64,000 nucleotides of DNA from the NCBI GenBank assembly GCA_964460615.1, contig CAYWPX010000002.1, positions 71,220 through 135,219 on the forward strand, read 5' to 3'. A program made the translations under genes and the position numbers. The DNA comes from an uncultured Planctomycetia bacterium (GTDB taxonomy: Bacteria > Omnitrophota > Gorgyraeia > CAYWPX01). Shown here one piece after another: positions 2,601 to 64,000 of the stretch (position 1 is the stretch's first letter; each line of letters starts with the position of its first letter). The notes beneath the pieces are model-generated. The model did not search any database and was not told where the DNA came from. It worked only from the letters and a program-made list of their open reading frames with translations.

Positions 2601-3593
2601 TCATGGAGTTTTGTTGTTACTATGAGCTATTAGCAATCTCTTCGCTGCTTCAAAAACCTCATCCGGCGTTATAAGCCTCATGCATTCATGATTATAACGG
2701 CACTGGGCCTCTTCGCAAGGTGAGCAGATAAGATCTTTCTGGATCACTACGCTATGCTCGGCAAGAGGGCCGTATTTTTTGGGATCTGTGGGGCCGAATA
2801 TTGCAATTGTCTTTGTATTGGTGGCTGAACCTATATGCAAGGGCGCGCTATCATTTGTAACTAAAAGTTTTGCTCTTTTTATGAGAGCCGTTAATTGCCT
2901 GAGCGTCGTTCTTCCGGCAAGATTGATTATCTTATAATTGCTGATATGAGCGATATCCTGAATAAATGTATTGTCACTGGCGTCCCCTACCATAATAACT
3001 ATAGACTTAAACTCTTCCATAAGCCTGTCATTCAGAACTGCAAATCCTTCCTTGGACCAGCGCTTAATATGACTTTTTGACCCGGGGCTTATAATAACAA
3101 TATTGTTGTCCGCTCCCATTTTTTTAAGAAAGCTATCTACAAACGCTTCGTCATCTTTTGAAGTATATAAAGTAAAATTGGCATTTTTTATGTCAATACC
3201 GAGATTATGCAATTTCCAGAGGTGGATATCTTTTTTATGGCGTATCCTTTCGGGAGCTTTATGTATGGGGCTTGTATAAATCTTCGAGCCTAACAATATG
3301 GGAAAAAGCGTATTCCTCAGATCTATCACCAGGTCATACTTTATTTTTCTCAGTTTTGCAACTAAACGCCTCTTCTGCATCATAGGAGTGGTCTTATCAT
3401 AAATAATTAATTTAAAAATTGCCGGGTTATCTTTAAATAACTCTTTACCGTTCGGGCCTACCATTATATCTACACGTGCTTCCGGAAAATTATTTTTAAG
3501 CGCACACAATACCGGAGTAGTGAGAACTATATCACCGATATTACTAAGTGTTATAAGAAGAATTCTTTTAATTTTAGTTTTATCTAATTCCAT
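2601..3593 (-). CDS. glycosyltransferase family 9 (heptosyltransferase family) paralog
   Basis: KRILLITLSNIGDIVLTTPVLCALKNNFP. C-terminal motif CSPCEEAQCRYNHECM. Confidence 0.85.
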   Translation of the reverse strand: MELDKTKIKRILLITLSNIGDIVLTTPVLCALKNNFPEARVDIMVGPNGKELFKDNPAIFKLIIYDKTTPMMQKRRLVAKLRKIKYDLVIDLRNTLFPILLGSKIYTSPIHKAPERIRHKKDIHLWKLHNLGIDIKNANFTLYTSKDDEAFVDSFLKKMGADNNIVIISPGSKSHIKRWSKEGFAVLNDRLMEEFKSIVIMVGDASDNTFIQDIAHISNYKIINLAGRTTLRQLTALIKRAKLLVTNDSAPLHIGSATNTKTIAIFGPTDPKKYGPLAEHSVVIQKDLICSPCEEAQCRYNHECMRLITPDEVFEAAKRLLIAHSNNKTP

Positions 3594-3596
3594 GTT

Positions 3597-4640
3597 TTAA
3601 ATCCCTGAAAGAAATTTATTCTCATCTATCTTTTTTATAACATCCTCTACGGTTATAGCTTTCATGCATTTGAAATCATCACAGCTAAAATTATAGCACG
3701 GCACTTCACAGCCGATATCCGAGCTGATAACTACCGTATTCTCTTTGCCATATGGCCCGGTAAGATCGGGTTTTGTCGGGCCAAAAAGCGCTACGGTATT
3801 CACCTTCAGGCTATTTGCTATATGCATTGGCCCTGAATCATTTGCTATAACAAGGCTCGACATTTTTAATATTGCTCCTAACTGCTTGAGATTTGTGGCT
3901 CCGGCAAGAATTACCGGTTCTGATCTCATCATGGATTCAATGTCATTAGCTAACTCAATATCTTTTCTGGCGCCGGTTATAACGATCTTTACTCCATATT
4001 TTTCAACTAATCTGTCCGAAAGTTTTGCGAAATTTTCCCGTGGCCATCTTTTGGGATCCCAATTCCCTCCCGGGTTGATAACTACAAGGGTATCTTCCTC
4101 TTTTATACCTTTTCTTCTTAAAAGGTTTTTTGCGAATTCAGCGTCATTCTTTGATATATAAAATTCATATCCCAGCCCTTTTACATCAGCACCTAAAAAA
4201 CCGGCGATCTTAAGAAAATAATCGACCTTATGGGCTGCCTCGAGAGGGGGCTCGATGATTTCAGTCAGGAACGCATTTCCCTTTATACTAGCATAGCCGA
4301 TCCTGTTTTTTATTCCCGACAAAACTGCTATAAGCCGTCTTGTAATAGAGCGATGGAGGAATATTGCCGTATCAAACTTCAAAGACCTGATCTCATTTAT
4401 CAGCTTAAGTTTTCCGAATAAGGATCTGTGTATGCCTTTTTCGTCATATATTATAAGTTTATCTACCGAAGGGTTGAGATCCAACACCTCTTTGGTCCTT
4501 GGCGCAATAAGACATGCTATGTACGCCTTGGGATAGAGATTCCTTATGGCACGGATAAATGGCGTAGAAAAAATGACATCCCCTATCCAATTGACTTCCA
4601 CAATAAGAATTCTTTTTGGGTTAATACCGGCTTTTGTCAT
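3597..4640 (-). CDS. glycosyltransferase family 9 (heptosyltransferase family) paralog
   Basis: KRILIVEVNWIGDVIFSTPFIRAIRNLYP. C-terminal motif CEVPCYNFSCDDFKCM. The ORF-track N-terminal extension to 4790 overlaps the upstream deacetylase gene, so I take the start as the internal Met (MTKAGINPKRILIV). Confidence 0.75.
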   Translation of the reverse strand: MTKAGINPKRILIVEVNWIGDVIFSTPFIRAIRNLYPKAYIACLIAPRTKEVLDLNPSVDKLIIYDEKGIHRSLFGKLKLINEIRSLKFDTAIFLHRSITRRLIAVLSGIKNRIGYASIKGNAFLTEIIEPPLEAAHKVDYFLKIAGFLGADVKGLGYEFYISKNDAEFAKNLLRRKGIKEEDTLVVINPGGNWDPKRWPRENFAKLSDRLVEKYGVKIVITGARKDIELANDIESMMRSEPVILAGATNLKQLGAILKMSSLVIANDSGPMHIANSLKVNTVALFGPTKPDLTGPYGKENTVVISSDIGCEVPCYNFSCDDFKCMKAITVEDVIKKIDENKFLSGI

Positions 4641-6554: not shown

Positions 6555-8711
6555 TCAGGAATTAAAAATTGCCTGTCCGGATTCATCATTTGAGAAATTC
6601 TGGTTACGATTTTCCCGTTTTTTATTTAAATCGGTATCTATATACTCTGAAACAGCTTTCATGACCTCTTCGACTTTGATATCTTTCATACATTTATTAT
6701 TCTTGAGGCACCCGGGCTTATAACACGGGGAACAATTTATGCCGCTTCTTATGATTTTTACATTACCGGGCGCATGTCTTTTGGGATCAGTAGGCCCGAA
6801 AAGCGCCACACAAGGCACGTTCAGGCTTGAAGCCACATGCATAGGAGCGCTGTCGCTTGTGACCAGAACGCTCATTTTATTTATCAAGGCTATCAGGTCC
6901 CTCAAATCTGTTTTACCCGCTGCAATAATGGGTTTACTCTGGGTCTTGGAAGCGATCTCCTTGGCAAGGTCAATATCAAGTTTGGATCCTATTATCACAA
7001 CCCTTGTATTATATTTTTTTGCTATCTCATCACAAAATTTGGCAAAGTATTCAGCCGGCCATCTTTTGGTCTGCCATTTTGCACTGGACCCCGGGTTGAT
7101 ACCTACAAGGCATTTTTGAGTATTGAACCAGTTCTCTTTCAGGAATTTATCAGCCCATTGGTCCTGCACCTTGCCCGGCCAAAGCTCTAAACCTGGGTCT
7201 TCAAGCTTGATCCCTAACATCGATAATACCCTGAACTGATGCTCTATAGGGCCGATATCCGGAATATTATTTTTTATCTTGTTATTCAACAGGAATGACC
7301 ACTTCTTATTATCATAGCCGAATCTTTTGGGCGCAAGACTTAAGAGAGCCAACAAATGGCTCGTCCGGTTATTCTGAAGATCTATAACAATATCAAAACA
7401 ATTTTTCCTTAAATAGCTTCCGATCTTAAGTATATCCTTTATCCCTTTTTTCTCAGGATCAAATATTATCTCATCATCTATATAAGTGCATCCGGCAAGA
7501 ACCTGCCTTGACTGAAGCCCTACAAGGACTTTTATAACGGCATTAGGAAATTTTTTTCTTATAGCCCGAAGGCTGGGAACTGACAATATAACGTCCCCGA
7601 TAGCGCTTATCTTTATTACCATAATATTAAGGCTTTCGAGGGCCTCTTCATACACCTTTAGAGTGCTTTCAAGCATCTTCTTGACGCTGAAGTTATCTTC
7701 TACATTCTTCCGTCCGTTTATAGCAAGTTGTTGCGCAAGATTTTTGTCTTTTGCTATCTTCAGTATTGCTTCTGACATTCCTTTCGGGTCATTAGGGAAG
7801 CATAATAATCCGTTGATATTATTTTTAATCACATCAAGGACCCCGCCGACCCTCGTCGCAACTACAGGCACCCCTGAGGCCTGGGCCTCAATAATGGTCC
7901 TTCCGAACGCTTCGGGAGTTGTTGTGGCAGAAACAAGGACATCCATCTTAGAAAGAACCTCGGGTATATTTTCCTGAAATCCCATAAACTCTACGATAGG
8001 TTGTAACCCAAGTCTTCTTATAAGTAACTCCAGCTCCTCTTTGTATTTCAATTTATCTTTTGACGCGTCCCCCACAATCAATACCTTAAGTTTCGGAATT
8101 GCCCTTGATACCAAAGCCGCCGCCTTAATAAAATCCGTGTGCCCCTTAAGCGGCGTTATCCGCGCTATTATACCCATTGTAAATTCATTTTTATTTTTAT
8201 CTCCGGGCGAGGAAAATCTGAACTTATCAAGATCAACCCCTCTATGGATGATCCTAATCCTGTTATAAGGGACTCCGAAATCCTCTATCATATGCTTAGC
8301 AATGGGATTTGATATGGCTATGACAAATTTTCCCCATCCCATTACGTAACTAAATATATTTTTGGAATAATACCCATGCGCTGAGGTTATAAATTTCACA
8401 TTGGTAATGCGTGAAGCAAAAAATGCCGCTATTGCGGGTACCCTGCTTCTGGCGTGCACAATATCGATCCTCTCGTCTTTAATTATTTTAACGAGCTCCC
8501 GGACCATCCTGATAACAGTAAGCGGGGATTTTTTATACACGGGAAGAGTATAGTGTCTGATCCCTGAGCGATCTAAGTGGCTTGTAAGCGGCCCACCGCC
8601 TGAGACTACGATAGATTTATGTTTATTTTCGGCCAAAAATCTGGCCACATCTATAGTCCCGCGCTCAACACCGCCGTATTCCAGCTTTGGTAATATTTGA
8701 AGTATATTCAT
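6555..8711 (-). CDS. fusion protein: N-terminal GT4 glycosyltransferase plus C-terminal GT9 heptosyltransferase-family domain
   Basis: Residues 1-360 are GT4-like (YGGVERGTIDVARFL...EAFGRTIIEAQASGVPVVATRVGGVLDVI). Residues about 365-718 are GT9-like (IMVIKISAIGDVILSVPSLRAIRKKFP...). The protein ends with the same Cys motif CSPCYKPGCLKNNKCM. Confidence 0.8.
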   Translation of the reverse strand: MNILQILPKLEYGGVERGTIDVARFLAENKHKSIVVSGGGPLTSHLDRSGIRHYTLPVYKKSPLTVIRMVRELVKIIKDERIDIVHARSRVPAIAAFFASRITNVKFITSAHGYYSKNIFSYVMGWGKFVIAISNPIAKHMIEDFGVPYNRIRIIHRGVDLDKFRFSSPGDKNKNEFTMGIIARITPLKGHTDFIKAAALVSRAIPKLKVLIVGDASKDKLKYKEELELLIRRLGLQPIVEFMGFQENIPEVLSKMDVLVSATTTPEAFGRTIIEAQASGVPVVATRVGGVLDVIKNNINGLLCFPNDPKGMSEAILKIAKDKNLAQQLAINGRKNVEDNFSVKKMLESTLKVYEEALESLNIMVIKISAIGDVILSVPSLRAIRKKFPNAVIKVLVGLQSRQVLAGCTYIDDEIIFDPEKKGIKDILKIGSYLRKNCFDIVIDLQNNRTSHLLALLSLAPKRFGYDNKKWSFLLNNKIKNNIPDIGPIEHQFRVLSMLGIKLEDPGLELWPGKVQDQWADKFLKENWFNTQKCLVGINPGSSAKWQTKRWPAEYFAKFCDEIAKKYNTRVVIIGSKLDIDLAKEIASKTQSKPIIAAGKTDLRDLIALINKMSVLVTSDSAPMHVASSLNVPCVALFGPTDPKRHAPGNVKIIRSGINCSPCYKPGCLKNNKCMKDIKVEEVMKAVSEYIDTDLNKKRENRNQNFSNDESGQAIFNS

Positions 8712-8722
8712 AATTTGTTTGC

Positions 8723-8782
8723 TCTAGGGTCCAGGGTCTAGGGTTTAAGGTTTTCAGCCCTACAGCCTGGAGCCGGGAGCGA
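8723..8782 (-). repeat. tandem heptamer array CTAGGGT/CCAGGGT/CTAGGGT/TTAAGGT followed by CAGCCCT/ACAGCCT/GGAGCCG; shares the 12-mer tagggtttaagg with the 168-233 element
   Basis: Read directly in the spacer between the LpxL-ELM1 stop and the GT4-GT9 start. Confidence 0.55.
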
Positions 8783-24203: not shown

Positions 24204-24294
24204 GATTTATTTAAACTCCGATTCGTACTTCGTCGTTCGTACTTCGTATATCGTTTCTTTTCGATGTACTATGTACGAAATACGATGTACTGCT
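24204..24294 (-). repeat. GTAC-rich tandem-heptamer element (family A copy 1) directly upstream of ilvN
   Basis: ttcgtac|ttcgtcg|ttcgtac|ttcgtat ... cgatgta|ctatgta|cgaaata|cgatgta. Confidence 0.55.
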
Positions 24295-25965: not shown

Positions 25966-26059
25966 TTAAAACCTCGCTTAAGCACTGCGTATTAAGTACG
26001 GCGTACGGCGCAAAAAACTTATTTTTCGCGATACGCTGTACACAATACGCTATACTGCT
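25966..26059 (-). repeat. GTAC-rich tandem-heptamer element (family A copy 2) directly upstream of ilvB
   Basis: gtacggcgtacggcgc ... cgcgata|cgctgta|cacaata|cgctata. Confidence 0.55.
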
Positions 26060-48226: not shown

Positions 48227-48323
48227 TATTTATCCGTTCTGCGTACGGTGTACAACGTACTGCGTGATGTAAAAATTATTTATTTTTTACGCCGTACGAA
48301 ATACGACATACGATGTACTGCTT
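48227..48323 (-). repeat. GTAC-rich tandem-heptamer element (family A copy 4) directly upstream of mlaF
   Basis: tatttatccgttctgcgtacggtgtacaacgtactgcgtg ... tacgccgtacgaaatacgacatacgatgtactgc. It shares its first approx. 22 nt with copy 3. Confidence 0.55.
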
Positions 48324-56708: not shown

Positions 56709-56825
56709 AATTACCTCTTATCCCGTACTTCGCCCATCGTATTTCGTACATTGTTTTTTAAAATTATTATTTTAATTTTTTCAATATACGATATACGAAG
56801 TACAATGTACTGTTTTTTTAAAGTA
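56709..56825 (-). repeat. GTAC-rich tandem-heptamer element (family A copy 5) with an AT-rich core, directly upstream of ilvE
   Basis: ccgtact|tcgccca|tcgtatt|tcgtaca ... AT-rich ... atatacg|atatacg|aagtaca|atgtact. Confidence 0.55.
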
Positions 56826-57518: not shown

Positions 57519-58680
57519 CGGTTATGTTTAAACTTGCAGCTTTATATGCCGGATAAATAGTCGCTAAAAAAGTAATAACTATACTCGAAATCGCTATCGC
57601 CAGTACATCGGACTGGATAATAAGAACCGGTATCTTATCAATATAATAAATATCTTTCGGTATATCTACAAACTGGTATTTTTTAAGGACATTGGCCAAT
57701 AATATCCCCAGACCTACCCCGAGCCCAGTGCCCCCCAATCCTATCAATGTCCCGTTTAAGGCAAATATTGCCATTATGCTTCTTTTGGTAGCGCCGATAG
57801 CCCTTAATATCCCTATGTCTTTCGTCTTTTCCATCACTGTCATAATAAGCGATGTAGCAATATTTAGGGCAGCAACAATAACTATGAGGGTCAGTATAAC
57901 AAACATCGTAAGCTTCTCCAGCTTTAGAGCGCTGAAAAAACTCTTATTTGATTCCATCCACGTCCTGATCGTATAGTCATAACCAAGTATGGCTGCAATG
58001 TTATTTTTGACTTCTTCGGGGCTGAACCTGTCTTTTATCTTTATCTCAAACCCTCCGACAAGATCCCCGAGATTTAGTATACGCCTGGCATCCGGTATAT
58101 TGATAAAAACAATATTTGCATCGTAGTCATACATACCTGAATTAAAAAAAGCGGCTATTTTAAAGTCATAACTCTTATTTGTAACCGGAGAAACCAGCGA
58201 TATTGTACTGGATATATTCGCCCCGAATTTTTTCGCCAGCTCCGAACCCATGATAACTTCGCCCTCGGAAAGCCTGAATTCACCCTTGGTTATATATTTT
58301 TTTAGCGATGTGGTGTTCTTCTCAACGTCGATATCTATCCCCCTTATTATTACCCCGGCAGTCTTGGCATTATTCACCAAAAGTGCCTGTGCATTCACAA
58401 AAGGGGCAACGCTTTCAATTCCATTTACCCTAACCAGTTCTTCTGATAACGAAACATAGTCAGAGATCCCGGCCTCTTTCTCTACCAATATCTCGGAATT
58501 GAACCCGATTATTTTTTCCTTGAGCTCATTATCAAATCCGCTCATAACCGCAAGTACTACTATGAGTGCTGCGACTCCGATTGTTATGCCGGCTACGGAG
58601 ATCAGGCTTATAACAGAGATCAATGCATGCTTTTTTTTAGCAGTCAAAAATTTAAAGCTTAGAAATAATTCCCAGATCAT
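57499..58680 (-). CDS. lolC: lipoprotein-releasing system permease LolC/E-like (FtsX family)
   Basis: N-terminal TM, a large periplasmic MacB-like domain and three C-terminal TM helices (FtsX). Confidence 0.8.
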   Translation of the reverse strand: MIWELFLSFKFLTAKKKHALISVISLISVAGITIGVAALIVVLAVMSGFDNELKEKIIGFNSEILVEKEAGISDYVSLSEELVRVNGIESVAPFVNAQALLVNNAKTAGVIIRGIDIDVEKNTTSLKKYITKGEFRLSEGEVIMGSELAKKFGANISSTISLVSPVTNKSYDFKIAAFFNSGMYDYDANIVFINIPDARRILNLGDLVGGFEIKIKDRFSPEEVKNNIAAILGYDYTIRTWMESNKSFFSALKLEKLTMFVILTLIVIVAALNIATSLIMTVMEKTKDIGILRAIGATKRSIMAIFALNGTLIGLGGTGLGVGLGILLANVLKKYQFVDIPKDIYYIDKIPVLIIQSDVLAIAISSIVITFLATIYPAYKAASLNITDALRYE

Positions 58681-58700
58681 AATTTGGTTAATGGTTGTTA

Positions 58701-59148
58701 GTGAATTGTGAATAGTTAAAAAATAAATTGTTACAATAATTTAATTAAAGTCATGGTCATTCTATTTATCTTTTCAATCTTTTCCAATAACTCGCTTAAT
58801 TTCTGATTTGCTAAATAATTTAACTTGTTAGATATTATTAATTGCGTTTCAAGTTCGGCGCTACTTGACAAAGTAATAAATAGAAATTGCTTGAATTCTT
58901 TGTTATGGTGCCTCATAAATCCTTCTGCAATATTCGAAGGCACCGAAATACTAGATCGTCTTATTTGATTAACTAACCCATAAAGCTCGTGACTTGGAAA
59001 TTCTTTTGTAATTTTATATATTTCTTCAACTAACTCTATGCCTTCCTGCCAAATCCTTAAGTTCTTGAAATTCTTTATTTTTTTTCCATTCACTATTCAC
59101 GTTTTTTGGTTTTATTACAATTCACCAACTACTATTCACTATTCACGG
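58701..59148 (-). mobile_element. candidate small cassette: four-helix-bundle IVS-family gene bracketed by inverted GTGAAT-heptamer repeats
   Basis: Left end, plus strand: gtgaattgtgaatagtt (about 58701-58717). Right end, minus strand: gtgaattgtaat, gtgaatagtgaatgg (overlapping the GTG start) and gtgaatagtgaatag (last codons of lysS). Confidence 0.3.
58731..59093 (-). CDS. four-helix-bundle protein of the 23S rRNA intervening-sequence (IVS) protein family (Avd-like fold)
   Basis: NLRIWQEGIELVEEIYKITKEFPSHELYGLVNQIRRSSISVPSNIAEGF matches the IVS-protein signature (W-Q-x-A..L....Y..FP..E.Y.L..Q.RR...S...NIAEG). The apparent start is GTG. Confidence 0.75.
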   Translation of the reverse strand: MNGKKIKNFKNLRIWQEGIELVEEIYKITKEFPSHELYGLVNQIRRSSISVPSNIAEGFMRHHNKEFKQFLFITLSSSAELETQLIISNKLNYLANQKLSELLEKIEKINRMTMTLIKLL

Positions 59149-60571
59149 TTTTTAGTTGAGGAAATAAGATAACATCTCTTATTGAATCTGCACCGGTAAA
59201 AACCATGGCAATTCTGTCAATACCTATGCCAAGCCCGCCCGCAGGGGGCATGCCGTATTCAAGTGCTCTTACAAAATCCATATCAATTCTCTCTTTTTTG
59301 CCCTGGACTTCGGCTAAGAACCTTTCATACTGCTCAATTGGGTCATTGAGTTCTGAATAGGCATTTGCCACTTCAATACCGCCTATAAAAAGCTCGAATC
59401 TTTCAGAAATTTTCGGATTGCCGGGCTTATTTTTAGCTAAAGGGCAGAGCTCGCTGAACATCTCTGTCACAAAAACCGGATGCGCTTCGGCCTTCGGTTC
59501 AATCAGTTCGGCTATGATATTTAATAGCTGGGTCTTGCTGAGATCTTTTCCTTCTACCTCGACGCCATGGCTTTTCAGTTTCGGTATCCACTCTTTTACA
59601 TCGTCATCGGGTAAAATCCCGAATGTATCTTTCATAAGATCGGTAAAAGAGACCTTCTTAAAAACCGAAAAATCAACGGTCTTACCCATGAATTCAAACT
59701 GAAGTTTCCCAAAAATCTCTTTAGCTGTATTTGTCAAAAGCTCTTCGGTGAGACGGATCATCTCGTCGCAGTCTGCATAAGCGGTATAGACCTCTAACAT
59801 TGTAAATTCAGGATTGTGCCTGATAGAGATCCCTTCGTTTCTGAAGGATCTGTTTAATTCGTAGACCCTTTCAAAACCGCCTACCAGAAGCTTTTTCAAA
59901 TATAGCTCTGGAGCTATCCTTAAAAAAAGGTCCATATCCAAAGCCTCATGATGAGTAATAAAAGGCTTTCCGGCAGCTCCTCCGGCTATGGGGTGCATCA
60001 TTGGGGTCTCTACCTCCATGTAACCCTTGGAATCCAGATATCCCCTTATACTTTTAATTATCCTGCTCCTGTCATAGAAAGCCTTTTTCACATTATCATT
60101 CACTATCAAGTCTACATACCTCTGACGGTATCTCGTCTCAACATCTTTAAGGCCGTGCCATTTTTCAGGTAAAGGCCTAAGGCTTTTTGAAAGGATCGTA
60201 AAGTTATTAACCTTGATTGTAAGTTCACCGGTCCTGGTCTTAAATATTTCTCCTTTAACGCCGATAATATCGCCTATATCAAGCTTGCTTACCAAATCAT
60301 ACTGTTCAGAGCCTACAATATCCTCTTTAAAATAAAGCTGCAACTTGCCGGTCTCATCCCTTAGATCCATAAAAGTACTTTTGCCGTGATTCCGCATAGC
60401 CATAATACGGCCTGCGGCTACGGATGGCTTCCCTTCAGAGTATGTATCTACCAGCTCTTTTACCTGATTATGGTCAAAACGCCTGCCATAAGGCTCTATA
60501 TTTCTGGCTTTTATGGCCTCAAGCTTATTAAGGCGCTCCCTTATTAATTCGTTGGAATCCTGTATTTCCAT
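59132..60571 (-). CDS. lysS: lysyl-tRNA synthetase (class II)
   Basis: N-terminal OB anticodon-binding domain, class II motifs FRNEGIS..HNPEFTMLE and GGLGIGIDRIAM. Confidence 0.9.
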   Translation of the reverse strand: MEIQDSNELIRERLNKLEAIKARNIEPYGRRFDHNQVKELVDTYSEGKPSVAAGRIMAMRNHGKSTFMDLRDETGKLQLYFKEDIVGSEQYDLVSKLDIGDIIGVKGEIFKTRTGELTIKVNNFTILSKSLRPLPEKWHGLKDVETRYRQRYVDLIVNDNVKKAFYDRSRIIKSIRGYLDSKGYMEVETPMMHPIAGGAAGKPFITHHEALDMDLFLRIAPELYLKKLLVGGFERVYELNRSFRNEGISIRHNPEFTMLEVYTAYADCDEMIRLTEELLTNTAKEIFGKLQFEFMGKTVDFSVFKKVSFTDLMKDTFGILPDDDVKEWIPKLKSHGVEVEGKDLSKTQLLNIIAELIEPKAEAHPVFVTEMFSELCPLAKNKPGNPKISERFELFIGGIEVANAYSELNDPIEQYERFLAEVQGKKERIDMDFVRALEYGMPPAGGLGIGIDRIAMVFTGADSIRDVILFPQLKTVNSE

Positions 60572-60630
60572 AATTGCCCTCTAAACCAAATTTTTGTATA
60601 TATCTATATTATCATAAAACTTAGATTATA

Positions 60631-60659
60631 ATTATATCTTAACACTACCCCCGTGTCAA
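60631..60659 (-). promoter_or_regulatory. consensus sigma70 promoter (TTGACA-N17-TATAAT) for lysS
   Basis: The minus strand reads ttgacacgggggtagtgttaagatataat about 55 nt upstream of the lysS ATG, with RBS agaggg. Confidence 0.55.
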
Positions 60660-62305: not shown

Positions 62306-62370
62306 TCTTATGATTAGTTCTTTTGCCCTTTTCTATTCAACATTCTGTCGCACCATTCACTATTAACTAT

Positions 62371-64000
62371 CTACTGATTTATCCCGCAGCATTTTTTATA
62401 TTTTTTACCGCTGCCGCACGGACAAGGATCGTTCCTGCCTACTTTGGGAAACTCTCTTTTAAAGGGTTCCGCTTTCTCCTCAACAAGATCTTCCCCGTTT
62501 TGAAGCGCATTTTGAGCTTGCGTTTTCGGCAGATCTTTTATTGCCGCCGCCTCGGCATGAATGAGCTTCTGTGCATTAATATTAAAAACCGGGCGCCTCT
62601 CTTCTTCTTTGACTATCTGGACCTTGAACAGCTTTTCAATTGTCTCTTCTTTTACGGAATTCTCCATCTCAGAAAACATCGAATACGCTTCTCTTTTGTA
62701 TTCTATTAGAGGGTCCACCTGGCCATAGGCACGGAACCCTATCCATTCCCTCAGTTCATCCATATTCCTCAGATGCCTCTTCCACCAGGTGTCTATGGTC
62801 TGGAGCATTATGTATTTTTCTATCATTCTCATTCTCTCGGAATTGATAAAATTCTCTTTATCCTCATAAAGATGTTTTAATCTTTCAAGGATCTCATCTT
62901 CTATCTGAACGCGCCTGAGATTTTCAAAATCAATATCCGATATATCAAGCATTAATTTATTTCTTGCCCAGGTGATAAACACTTTTGTATCCCAGTCTTT
63001 AGGATGAATATCCTCTTTTAGGCATTGATCCATCTCGTCCAGTATAACTTCCTCTGCCATATTAAAAATTTCACTTTTAATGTCTATATCAAAGAGGACT
63101 TTCCTCCTGTAGTTGTAGACTTCCTTTCGCTGAACGTTCATTATATTGTCATACTCTATCAAATGTTTCCTTATCGAAAAATTGTGTTCTTCCACTCTTT
63201 TTTGCGCCGTCTCGATCGCCCGCGAAAGCATATTATGTTCGATCGGCATACCCTCTTCCCACTGAAAAAAATTCATTACTTTGGCGATCCTGTCAGAAGC
63301 AAATAACCTCATAAGGTCATCTTCCAGAGAAATAAAAAACCTGCTCGAGCCCGGATCTCCCTGCCTGCCTGCCCTGCCTCTTAACTGGTTGTCTATTCGT
63401 CTTGATTCATGGCGTTCTGTGCCTATAACATGCAAACCGCCCAGTTCAGTCACCCCTTCACCGAGAACTATATCGGTACCGCGGCCTGCCATATTCGTTG
63501 ATATGGTAACGCTGAATTTCTGCCCGGCCTTAGAAATTATTTCAGCTTCTTTTTCATGATACCTGGCATTTAAGACATTATGAGGGACTTCGTATCTTCT
63601 TAATAAACGGCTGAGTTTTTCTGATTTTTCTATTGTTACGGTCCCAACGAGAACTGGCCTTCCTACCTTATACAACTCTACGATCTCCCGACAAACGGCA
63701 TTATATTTTTCCCCCTCAGTCTTAAATATCAGATCATGATTTTCTGATCTTTTTAAAGGTTTATTGGTAGGGATTGCAATACTATCAAGGCTGTAAATTT
63801 TCTTAAATTCCTGCGCCTCGGTCATGGCGGTCCCTGTCATGCCGCTTAATTTCTCGTACATCCTGAAATAATTCTGGAAAGTTATGGTAGCGAGCGTCTG
63901 GGACTCTTTTTCAATAGTAACACTCTCTTTTGCTTCCAATGCCTCATGTATACCGTCTGAAAAACGCCTCCCCGGCATCATACGGCCGGTAAATTCGTCC
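62371..64000 (-). CDS. secA: preprotein translocase ATPase SecA, C-terminal approx. 540 aa (N-terminus beyond the window end)
   Basis: Helicase motor 2 region ([13 protein letters not shown]), helical scaffold/wing and the C-terminal zinc motif [14 protein letters not shown]. Confidence 0.9.

Follow-up and report, generated by a model that had tools for sequence, protein, structure and literature searches.

A four-helix-bundle gene between lysS and lolC lies in what is very probably an inserted, heptamer-bounded cassette of the intervening-sequence type

The locus described here lies in a 64-kb stretch of contig CAYWPX010000002.1 from an uncultured bacterium of the Omnitrophota (64,000 nt, hereafter the window), where the genes secA, lnt, lysS, a small gene for a four-helix-bundle protein, lolC, lolD and ilvE follow one another on the same strand (Pfam assignments, ~5 kb around the small gene). 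The four-helix-bundle gene (58731..59093, minus strand) starts with a GTG codon at 59091-59093 and encodes a protein of 120 aa, which matches the PF05635 profile (23S_rRNA_IVP) over residues 10-113 with an E-value of 2.6e-38 and 130.9 bits against a cut-off of 33.8; the TIGR02436 profile ('four helix bundle protein') scores 123.3 bits (cut-off 24) and NF008911 scores 139.8 bits (cut-off 137). The nearest solved structure is PDB 2GSC (XCC0516; E 1.4e-20), an entry of five chains that has been described as a homopentameric toroid (PMC4990558, citing Lin et al. 2006). Judged by these scores, the 120-aa protein is clearly a member of PF05635 and a four-helix-bundle relative of the 2GSC homopentamer. 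A search with this single sequence returned 22,253 PF05635-type clusters at 50% identity (E <= 0.001).

PF05635 takes its profile name from the intervening sequences (IVSs) of 23S rRNA. The original prediction, made from the letters alone, had placed a gene of this IVS family outside rRNA, between lolC and lysS, and the PF05635 score and the lysS|lolC location bear it out. Rfam found no rRNA anywhere in the window, either at gathering thresholds or at E <= 1, and no match to any other RNA family at gathering thresholds, with E <= 1 adding one unrelated, spurious match. The window holds one gene-bearing copy. On both sides the gene is flanked by tandem 7-nt repeats, and the parts of the resulting unit are as follows, ORF standing for open reading frame.

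58687..59146, minus strand: the whole cassette, 5' heptamer arrays plus four-helix-bundle ORF plus 3' inverted array, between lysS and lolC; ~460 nt
59112..59146, minus strand: distal 5' array, five GT-phased heptamers, GTGAATA GTGAATA GTAGTTG GTGAATT GTAATAA
59086..59100, minus strand: proximal 5' array, GTGAATA GTGAATG G, which contains the GTG start at 59091-59093
58687..58721, plus strand: 3' array, five heptamers, GTTAATG GTTGTTA GTGAATT GTGAATA GTTAAAA, inverted relative to the gene
59088-59111 and 59134-59157, minus strand: 24-nt direct repeat in two copies 46 nt apart (repeat family D1)

The inverted GTGAAT copies that had been proposed for the two sides of the gene are present: GTGAATTGTGAATAG lies on the plus strand at 58701-58715, while on the minus strand an exact GTGAATAGTGAAT occurs twice (59088-59100 and 59134-59146) and GTGAATTGTAAT occurs at 59114-59125, and the 5' and 3' arms are related by the inverted pairs I1, I3 and I6. 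Two finer points also hold, namely that one right-hand copy (59086-59100) overlaps the GTG start and that another (59132-59146) encodes the last four lysS codons and the stop codon, V-N-S-E-stop, so that LysS ends ...KTVNSE* and the distal 5' array overlaps both these codons and the stop at 59132-59134. At the other end, the 3' array stops 6 nt short of the lolC start codon. The right-hand copies were correctly described as inverted to the left array; among themselves, however, they form the 24-nt direct duplication, of which the distal member is missing from the nearest sampled relative. Similarly, what had been called terminal inverted repeats do bracket a discrete inserted unit but are not simple repeats of that kind, being made of ~4-5 tandem heptamers whose sequence of units in one arm is not the mirror of that in the other. 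In an array of GTGAATA units, each of the three reading frames meets a stop codon.

The clustering of these words is local. Across the 64 kb, the hexamers GTGAAT and ATTCAC number 40 (~42 expected), yet 7 of them fall within 446 nt where 0.28 would be expected (Poisson probability ~2e-8, from 7 observed against 0.28 expected); the flanking similarity therefore exceeds the generic heptamer background that the original prediction had named as a possible undoing. Taken alone, the number of matches to the 13-mer in the whole window, at <=2 mismatches, does not stand out (5 against 1.87 expected, with 5 reached in 6/100 shuffles).

Comparison of the lysS|lolC junction among relatives indicates that the unit was inserted. 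In three more distant Omnitrophota relatives, whose LysS is 67-68% identical to that of the window, lysS overlaps lolC or sits 9-20 nt away from it, as read from DNA in two of them (L091 and L093) and from the gene table alone for the third contig; the order lysS-lolC-lolD-ilvE-mcsA-mcsB is the same in all three, and their LysS proteins end ...KKEK*. The check for empty sites that had been suggested at the lolC-lysS junction thus finds them. The nearest sampled relative (L082/L083), with a LysS 82%, a LolC 68% and a four-helix-bundle protein 78% identical to those of the window, has a cassette at the same junction. In L082 the 3' array of this cassette is conserved, the distal 5' array is missing and LysS ends ...KKES*, so the distal copy arose by a 46-nt duplication (D1) specific to the window lineage. 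From this alignment, a window-specific 46-nt tandem duplication evidently replaced the ancestral KKEK/KKES tail of LysS by TVNSE, and odd gene ends such as this rewritten LysS C-terminus are explained by cassette arrays. Taken together, the junctions indicate that the cassette entered a formerly abutting lysS|lolC junction in an ancestor of the window organism and its nearest sampled relative.

Since that insertion, gene and arrays have been maintained. Between the window and L082 the four-helix-bundle gene has a dN/dS of 0.08, with a dN of 0.128 against 0.136 for lysS, which on codon comparison shows strong purifying selection. The proximal 5' array is identical at 15/15 positions while ~65% of synonymous sites differ, so that the arrays too are, by this measure, far better conserved than synonymous sites. 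The comparison thus points to purifying selection on both the gene and its heptamer arrays.

The same kind of cassette is found at other operon junctions. Proteins 72-78% identical to the 120-aa protein occupy like cassettes at queD|pyrF (L084), at mraY|murD (L085/L086) and upstream of miaA (x|miaA, L002). When five cassettes of this clade from four loci are aligned, similarity runs from the AGTGAAT of the first heptamer to the last ATTCAC, and the outer flanks are unrelated. These alignments indicate that cassettes with the same termini stand at other junctions in other genomes, and together with the empty lysS|lolC sites the sharp homology boundaries sustain the earlier suggestion of an inserted unit of a mobile type. 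Two findings count against such a unit: the flanks directly outside the arrays in the five cassettes share no duplicated bases, so that no target-site duplication is seen, and the cassette encodes no recognisable recombinase or mobility enzyme, nor is there a transposase in the cassettes or among their neighbours at the window, L082, L084, L085/L086 and L002-type loci. Even so, we are highly confident that the feature is an inserted, heptamer-bounded cassette of the IVS type.

A PF05635-like gene could also be a remnant or component of a diversity-generating retroelement (DGR), that is, a gene for the accessory protein Avd that has lost its reverse transcriptase (RT). Avd (bAvd, PDB 4DWL) and PF05635 share a homologous four-helix-bundle fold (PMC10053308), and the 120-aa protein weakly matches bAvd (E 5e-6) and the DGR Avd model (E 8e-4). 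These matches, however, are far below the models' cut-offs (27.4 against 40 bits for PF22296 bAvd; 19.7 against 80 bits for NF033474), there is no RT gene among the neighbours secA, lnt, lysS, lolC, lolD and ilvE (~5 kb), where no search aimed at template and variable repeats was made, and the same cassette type at the other loci (L084, L085/L086, L002) likewise lacks one. A DGR origin was accordingly rejected, as the original prediction had already argued from the missing RT gene, and we consider it highly improbable.

To place the cassette within its family, we surveyed 83 homologous genes with both flanks available, from 80 species-representative loci in Omnitrophota, Atribacterota, Planctomycetota, Nitrospirota, Smithellaceae, Victivallales and others, scoring the best inverted match between the 110-nt flanks of each gene against direct orientation, shuffled sequences and 121 random pairs. 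The median inverted-flank score was 15, compared with 7 for the direct, shuffled and random controls, and scores of at least 12 were reached by 81% of the homologues and by 0/121 controls. The flanks are also periodic: self-similarity at period 7 appears in 58% of upstream and 53% of downstream flanks (<1% of controls), and periods 5, 6, 8 and 9 are essentially absent. Tandem Repeats Finder (TRF) independently reported arrays in 142/166 flanks, 132 of them with period 7, at a median of 4.2-4.3 copies (interquartile range, IQR, 3.3-5.0); counted as GT-phased units, the mode per array is 5. In the clade of the window cassette the unit consensus reads G(93%) T(90%) R W W K M. Of the homologues on viral contigs, 21/32 have this layout built from different words, and plasmids of cultured Riemerella and Geminocystis have it too. 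Homologues with inverted flanks are thus common, and the survey shows, at the level of flank comparison, that the gene-plus-array layout is the norm for PF05635 across phyla and phages.

The surveyed genes favour a particular setting. Same-strand neighbours outnumber opposite-strand ones by 65 to 4 on the upstream side, across a median gap of 54 nt, and by 61 to 9 on the downstream side. A cassette occupies dnaK/grpE|dnaJ at seven or more loci of Planctomycetota (L022, L023, L030, L035, L039, L042, L043). Consecutive genes of V-type ATPase operons in Sedimentisphaerales and Phycisphaerae (L052, L046, L047, L050) are split by as many as three cassettes, no two of them with the same word; L052 has three within 8 kb of one such operon (3204-3572, 3995-4360 and 7701-8102), with three different words. 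Cassettes also lie between co-directional tRNA genes, at 1878-2483 in L009 and 934-1551 in L068 (tRNA-Met|tRNA-Glu and tRNA-Cys|tRNA-Val), and these are therefore inside stable-RNA precursor transcripts. Some arrays in the collection have grown to 8-23 or more units and look like microsatellites (L065 at ~3840-4000, L121, L126, L127, L142, L146), which suggests slippage, possibly with phase-variable length.

Two readings of the flanks lose most of their ground here. One holds that the small gene is an ordinary one and that its AT-rich intergenic flanks resemble each other by chance; the unremarkable 13-mer count and the ordinary stability of the window cassette's predicted RNA fold (z = -0.58) would agree with this. 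It is refuted by the 7 hexamers in 446 nt, by arrays conserved despite near-saturated synonymous change, by a layout found in most homologues and in no control, and by the five-cassette alignment with its sharp ends, and we give it practically no weight. The other is the original suggestion of a miniature inverted-repeat transposable element (MITE) with a passenger gene. Like MITEs, the cassette is short and intergenic, with inverted ends, empty sites and gene-less copies; unlike them, it shows no target-site duplication, ends in tandem arrays and carries its gene as a conserved norm. Because the pairing of gene and arrays is a family rule (81% of 83 homologues) and the gene is under purifying selection (dN/dS 0.08), the MITE description fits poorly.

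The closest known counterparts are the 23S rRNA IVSs that carry an S23p/PF05635 ORF in Leptospira, Coxiella burnetii, Xanthomonas and Brucella. Their proteins belong to the same family as that of the cassette, and like the cassette they hold the ORF in sense orientation within the host transcript, closed by a terminal inverted-repeat stem. In the Coxiella IVS, three GACAGAT heptamers that vary between strains precede the ORF, whose Shine-Dalgarno sequence is poor (PMC4990558). The differences are of location and of upkeep: S23p IVSs sit in helix 25 or 45 of 23S rRNA, whereas the cassette stands in an mRNA operon with protein-coding genes on either side (other cassettes stand between tRNA genes) and, not being in rRNA, fails the strict definition of an IVS; and the Coxiella ORF is decaying, whereas the window ORF is under strong purifying selection. 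Inverted arrays of ~4-5 heptamers at both ends were not found as a general rule in the searchable literature, where the Coxiella description is the only one of heptamers beside an S23p ORF; subscription-only literature lay outside that search, and an earlier description is possible. We take the cassette to be a mobile element of the IVS type, set in an mRNA operon, that exemplifies a general and apparently undescribed architecture.

PF05635 is very large, and outside DGRs its members have no known function. What the survey shows is that they normally come as discrete cassettes, ended by inverted heptamer arrays, whose habitats are co-directional operon gaps, the spaces between tRNA genes and, classically, 23S rRNA. 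The rRNA 'intervening sequence' is recast as one habitat of a general, cross-phylum element, and a link is drawn between IVS ORFs, the heptamer hairpins that stand without a gene in intergenic DNA, and the unexplained heptamer repeats known from cyanobacteria and Beggiatoaceae.

How such a cassette might work is suggested by its place in the transcript. A near-consensus promoter, TTGACA-17-TATAAT, lies upstream of lysS in the lnt|lysS gap (~60600-60640, minus strand), and L082 has kept it. The cassette itself was found to have neither a promoter-like nor a terminator-like site, the terminator-like search covering 58400-59400; an intrinsic terminator, a GC-rich hairpin followed by a T run, was considered as an identity for the repeats and ruled out, that interval containing none. 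The cassette is co-directional within the lysS-lolCD-ilvE gene string, and the promoter upstream of lysS likely drives a lysS-cassette-lolCD-ilvE transcript. Folded as RNA, as had been proposed, the flanks give a predicted long-range stem: in both the minimum free energy (MFE) and the centroid structure an array-array stem of ~25 bp (blocks of 6, 9 and 10 bp) closes the ORF, with the distal 5' array as its 5' strand. The MFE and centroid structures of the L082 cassette also close the ORF by array-array pairing (z = -3.27).

Duplexes of at least ~22 bp are what RNase III usually needs. We read the locus, as a whole, as an inserted IVS-type cassette transcribed by read-through from the lysS promoter, with arrays that pair into a stem cut by RNase III, and put this statement at roughly even odds (about 0.5). 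By this account the cassette would be expressed by read-through, and in the transcript the two arrays would pair into an imperfect stem of ~25 bp with the ORF in a loop of ~400 nt. The stem would be an RNase III substrate, as in the 23S rRNA IVSs of Coxiella and Leptospira, and a cut would free the four-helix-bundle message and set the lysS and lolC cistrons apart. The precedent is the Coxiella 23S IVS, in which an S23p ORF follows tandem heptamers, a 28-bp terminal stem closes the element and RNase III cuts have been mapped at the first repeat (PMC4990558). By analogy with it, the stem of the window cassette is a putative RNase III site.

Several observations weigh against cleavage of this kind. 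If the arms were selected to pair as RNA, mismatches of the sense type (G.U) should exceed those of the antisense type (A.C); the counts, 94 against 71, do not differ significantly (p = 0.086). The sense duplex is the more stable in 76% of loci, compared with 68% of composition-matched shuffles (p = 0.31), and an energy difference in favour of the sense strand that first appeared strong (p = 3.5e-7) was gone against such shuffles. Heptamer variants follow a mirrored order in the two arms no more closely than permuted units do (0.70 against 0.68, p = 0.07), so that we claim no covariation support for a specific stem, and the variable heptamer positions pair at only 71-85%. The fold of the whole window cassette, as noted, is not unusually stable. 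The lysS stop codon, moreover, lies inside the predicted stem, so an efficient cut could leave the lysS mRNA without a stop, and in some viral contigs the gene sits in a long ORF that reads through it, which is a misfit with obligatory cleavage. Given the outcome of the RNA-pairing tests, the two arms are most aptly seen as oppositely oriented arrays whose words come from one family, an arrangement that suits a slippage-tolerant stem, protein-read arrays or multi-site transposon ends equally well.

Arrays of this kind also occur in the window away from the four-helix-bundle gene, as the following features.

56725..56810, minus strand: ORF-less heptamer hairpin in the lolD|ilvE gap, of GTACATT/GTACTTC/GTATATC type; sense-strand MFE -33.1
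48236..48318, minus strand: ORF-less heptamer hairpin in the mlaE|mlaF gap
25989..26055, minus strand: ORF-less heptamer hairpin in the ilvD|ilvB gap
24225..24290, minus strand: ORF-less heptamer hairpin in the ilvB|ilvN gap
8719..8782, minus strand: ORF-less heptamer hairpin between a lipid-A acyltransferase-like gene and a glycosyltransferase gene, of GGTCCAG/GGTCTAG type
62347..62374, minus strand: single heptamer array in the secA|lnt gap, GTAGATA GTTAATA GTGAATG GT; no inverted partner

In each of the five hairpins a short A/T-rich loop joins a forward heptamer array to the inverted one, and the hairpins occupy tiny gaps between co-directional genes for subunits or steps of one system (ilvD|ilvB|ilvN, mlaE|mlaF, lolD|ilvE). 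On the sense strand 4/5 begin with A(A/G)CAGTAC. Their words are other than those of the cassette and only ~60-70% alike by eye; the words of the single array in the secA|lnt gap belong to the cassette's family. By the reading preferred above, the hairpins in these five operon gaps would belong to the class of the cassette as members without a gene. L082, L091 and L093 all lack the lolD|ilvE hairpin, so that such hairpins have been gained over the same span of time as the cassette. Beyond the window, a scan of metagenome contigs for GTGAATNGTGAATNGTGAAT found 6-7 arrays that adjoin a four-helix-bundle gene, while 52 others that could be evaluated had no such gene within 700 nt; 19 of these 52 have an inverted partner at <=600 nt (17 of them at <=150 nt), and the rest are single.

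This abundance of gene-less copies bears on whether the arrays are first of all sites on DNA. The cassette might be a purely DNA-level selfish element, its arrays serving as multi-site terminal inverted repeats for a recombinase or transposase supplied in trans; the gene-less hairpins would then be MITE-like, the RNA stem incidental, and the four-helix-bundle gene either cargo or an accessory factor. Empty sites with sharp termini are what such an element would leave, as is a hairpin gained at lolD|ilvE in the window lineage only; the arms show no strand asymmetry beyond base composition; and among GTGAATx3 matches gene-less arrays or hairpins outnumber gene-bearing ones by ~8:1 (52 against 6-7). 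The architecture recalls the REP-associated tyrosine transposase (RAYT) genes with their inverted flanks of repetitive extragenic palindromes (REPs, paired in REPINs): there too a small gene stands between inverted short repeats that also form gene-less intergenic hairpins, and there too the repeat type tends to go with the gene lineage. The resemblance stops at the parts themselves, since the cassette protein is a four-helix bundle that matches PF05635 only and has no HUH/Y1 (IS200/IS605-like) transposase motifs, cassette repeats are tandem heptamer arrays where a REP is a single imperfect palindrome, and several cassettes can occur in one genome (the three within 8 kb of L052), unlike RAYT. 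A DNA-level element is further opposed by the missing target-site duplication and transposase, by the strong co-orientation with host genes, which transposition alone does not predict, and by a gene that is kept under strong purifying selection at orthologous sites and recurs at dnaK|dnaJ and V-ATPase junctions across Planctomycetota. On balance we regard this explanation as possible, if rather unlikely.

Another explanation makes the arrays primarily protein-binding sites. A toroidal homopentamer of the four-helix-bundle protein would bind an array with about one subunit to each heptamer, in RNA or DNA, regulating its own cassette and acting in trans on ORF-less hairpins and single arrays, while the complementarity of the arms would be a by-product of the same word being set in opposite orientations. 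Period 7 and the leading GT (93%, 90%) are indeed far better conserved than pairing at the variable positions (71-85%), the unit order is not mirrored between the arms, and arrays of ~4-5 units match a family that forms homopentameric rings (2GSC, five chains; PMC4990558). Across the survey, protein identity correlates with similarity of the heptamer profile (Spearman 0.40; 0/500 permutations in a Mantel test), independently of GC content, and the three L052 cassettes keep three different words. Gene-less hairpins and single arrays, which such a protein could serve in trans, are common. The specificity of the words is loose, however, GTGAAT arrays also flanking proteins only 32-47% identical to the 120-aa protein; the ORF-less hairpins of the window use GTACATC rather than the cassette word; the correlation of protein and word may be mere co-inheritance of gene and arrays; and unit number, as counted by TRF, is spread (IQR 3.3-5.0) rather than sharply five. 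A stricter version, in which each protein clade has its cognate word, was dropped in view of those 32-47% identical proteins and of the GTGAATx3 arrays, most of which are gene-less. We hold the protein-binding explanation to be unlikely, while noting what it would join.

Ring-shaped RNA-binding regulators of periodically spaced triplets exist in TRAP and HutP, the latter reading UAG-N4-UAG-N4-UAG with a period of 7. They are a conceptual analogue only, with one subunit per repeat and no homology to the cassette protein; a GTGAATA array likewise reads UAG-N4-UAG. Avd, for its part, forms a pentameric ring that binds nucleic acids and RT. Repeats in search of a partner exist as well: the short tandemly repeated repetitive (STRR) or heptamer sequences of cyanobacteria and the TAACTGA repeats of Beggiatoaceae are tandem 7-nt units, ~3-8 in number, that lie in intergenic DNA near start codons and have no known function or partner (PMC4679880; 10.1101/2022.06.06.494920), the want of an identified binding partner for the cyanobacterial repeats being one more point that a heptamer-reading protein would answer (10.1101/2022.06.06.494920). 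Read as its reverse complement, TAACTGA is aGTTATC, which fits the xGTnnnn pattern of cassette heptamers. Where the cassette arrays form inverted pairs, the STRR and TAACTGA repeats are described as direct repeats near genes in general, and the papers on the cyanobacterial and Beggiatoaceae repeats connect them neither with PF05635 genes nor with inverted pairs (PMC4679880; 10.1101/2022.06.06.494920).

It is a doubtful proposal, then, that PF05635 pentamers are the long-sought readers of bacterial tandem heptamer repeats, each ring taking about five 7-nt units of RNA or single-stranded DNA; equally doubtful is its second half, that such a reader controls or propagates its own cassette and acts in trans on the far more numerous gene-less hairpins and single arrays in operon gaps. 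Were it true, IVS ORFs, unexplained since 1993, would have a function, STRR and TAACTGA-type repeats would have a partner, and Avd would have been recruited into DGRs from an ancestral role in nucleic-acid recognition.

Some observations on the wider family stand apart from these readings. On IMG/VR contigs a four-helix-bundle gene can lie inside a long ORF for a PglX/BREX-like methyltransferase (2995-3351 within ORF 6-3980 in L215; 656-1021 within ORF 103-1617 in L221; also L216 and L224). The methyltransferase ORF crosses the entire gene in another frame, free of stops, and there yields a stretch of ~120 aa rich in G, S and D; that two divergent examples keep the outer frame open suggests either dual coding or a tolerated in-gene insertion. 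The domain labelled '23S rRNA IVP' is also among those associated with CRISPR arrays in the FLSHclust survey (PMC10910872). Finally, many close homologues of the window gene sit on very short contigs (~0.6-2 kb), which fits assembly breaks at repeats or multi-copy elements, and the heptamer arrays may explain why metagenome assemblies break at such repeats.

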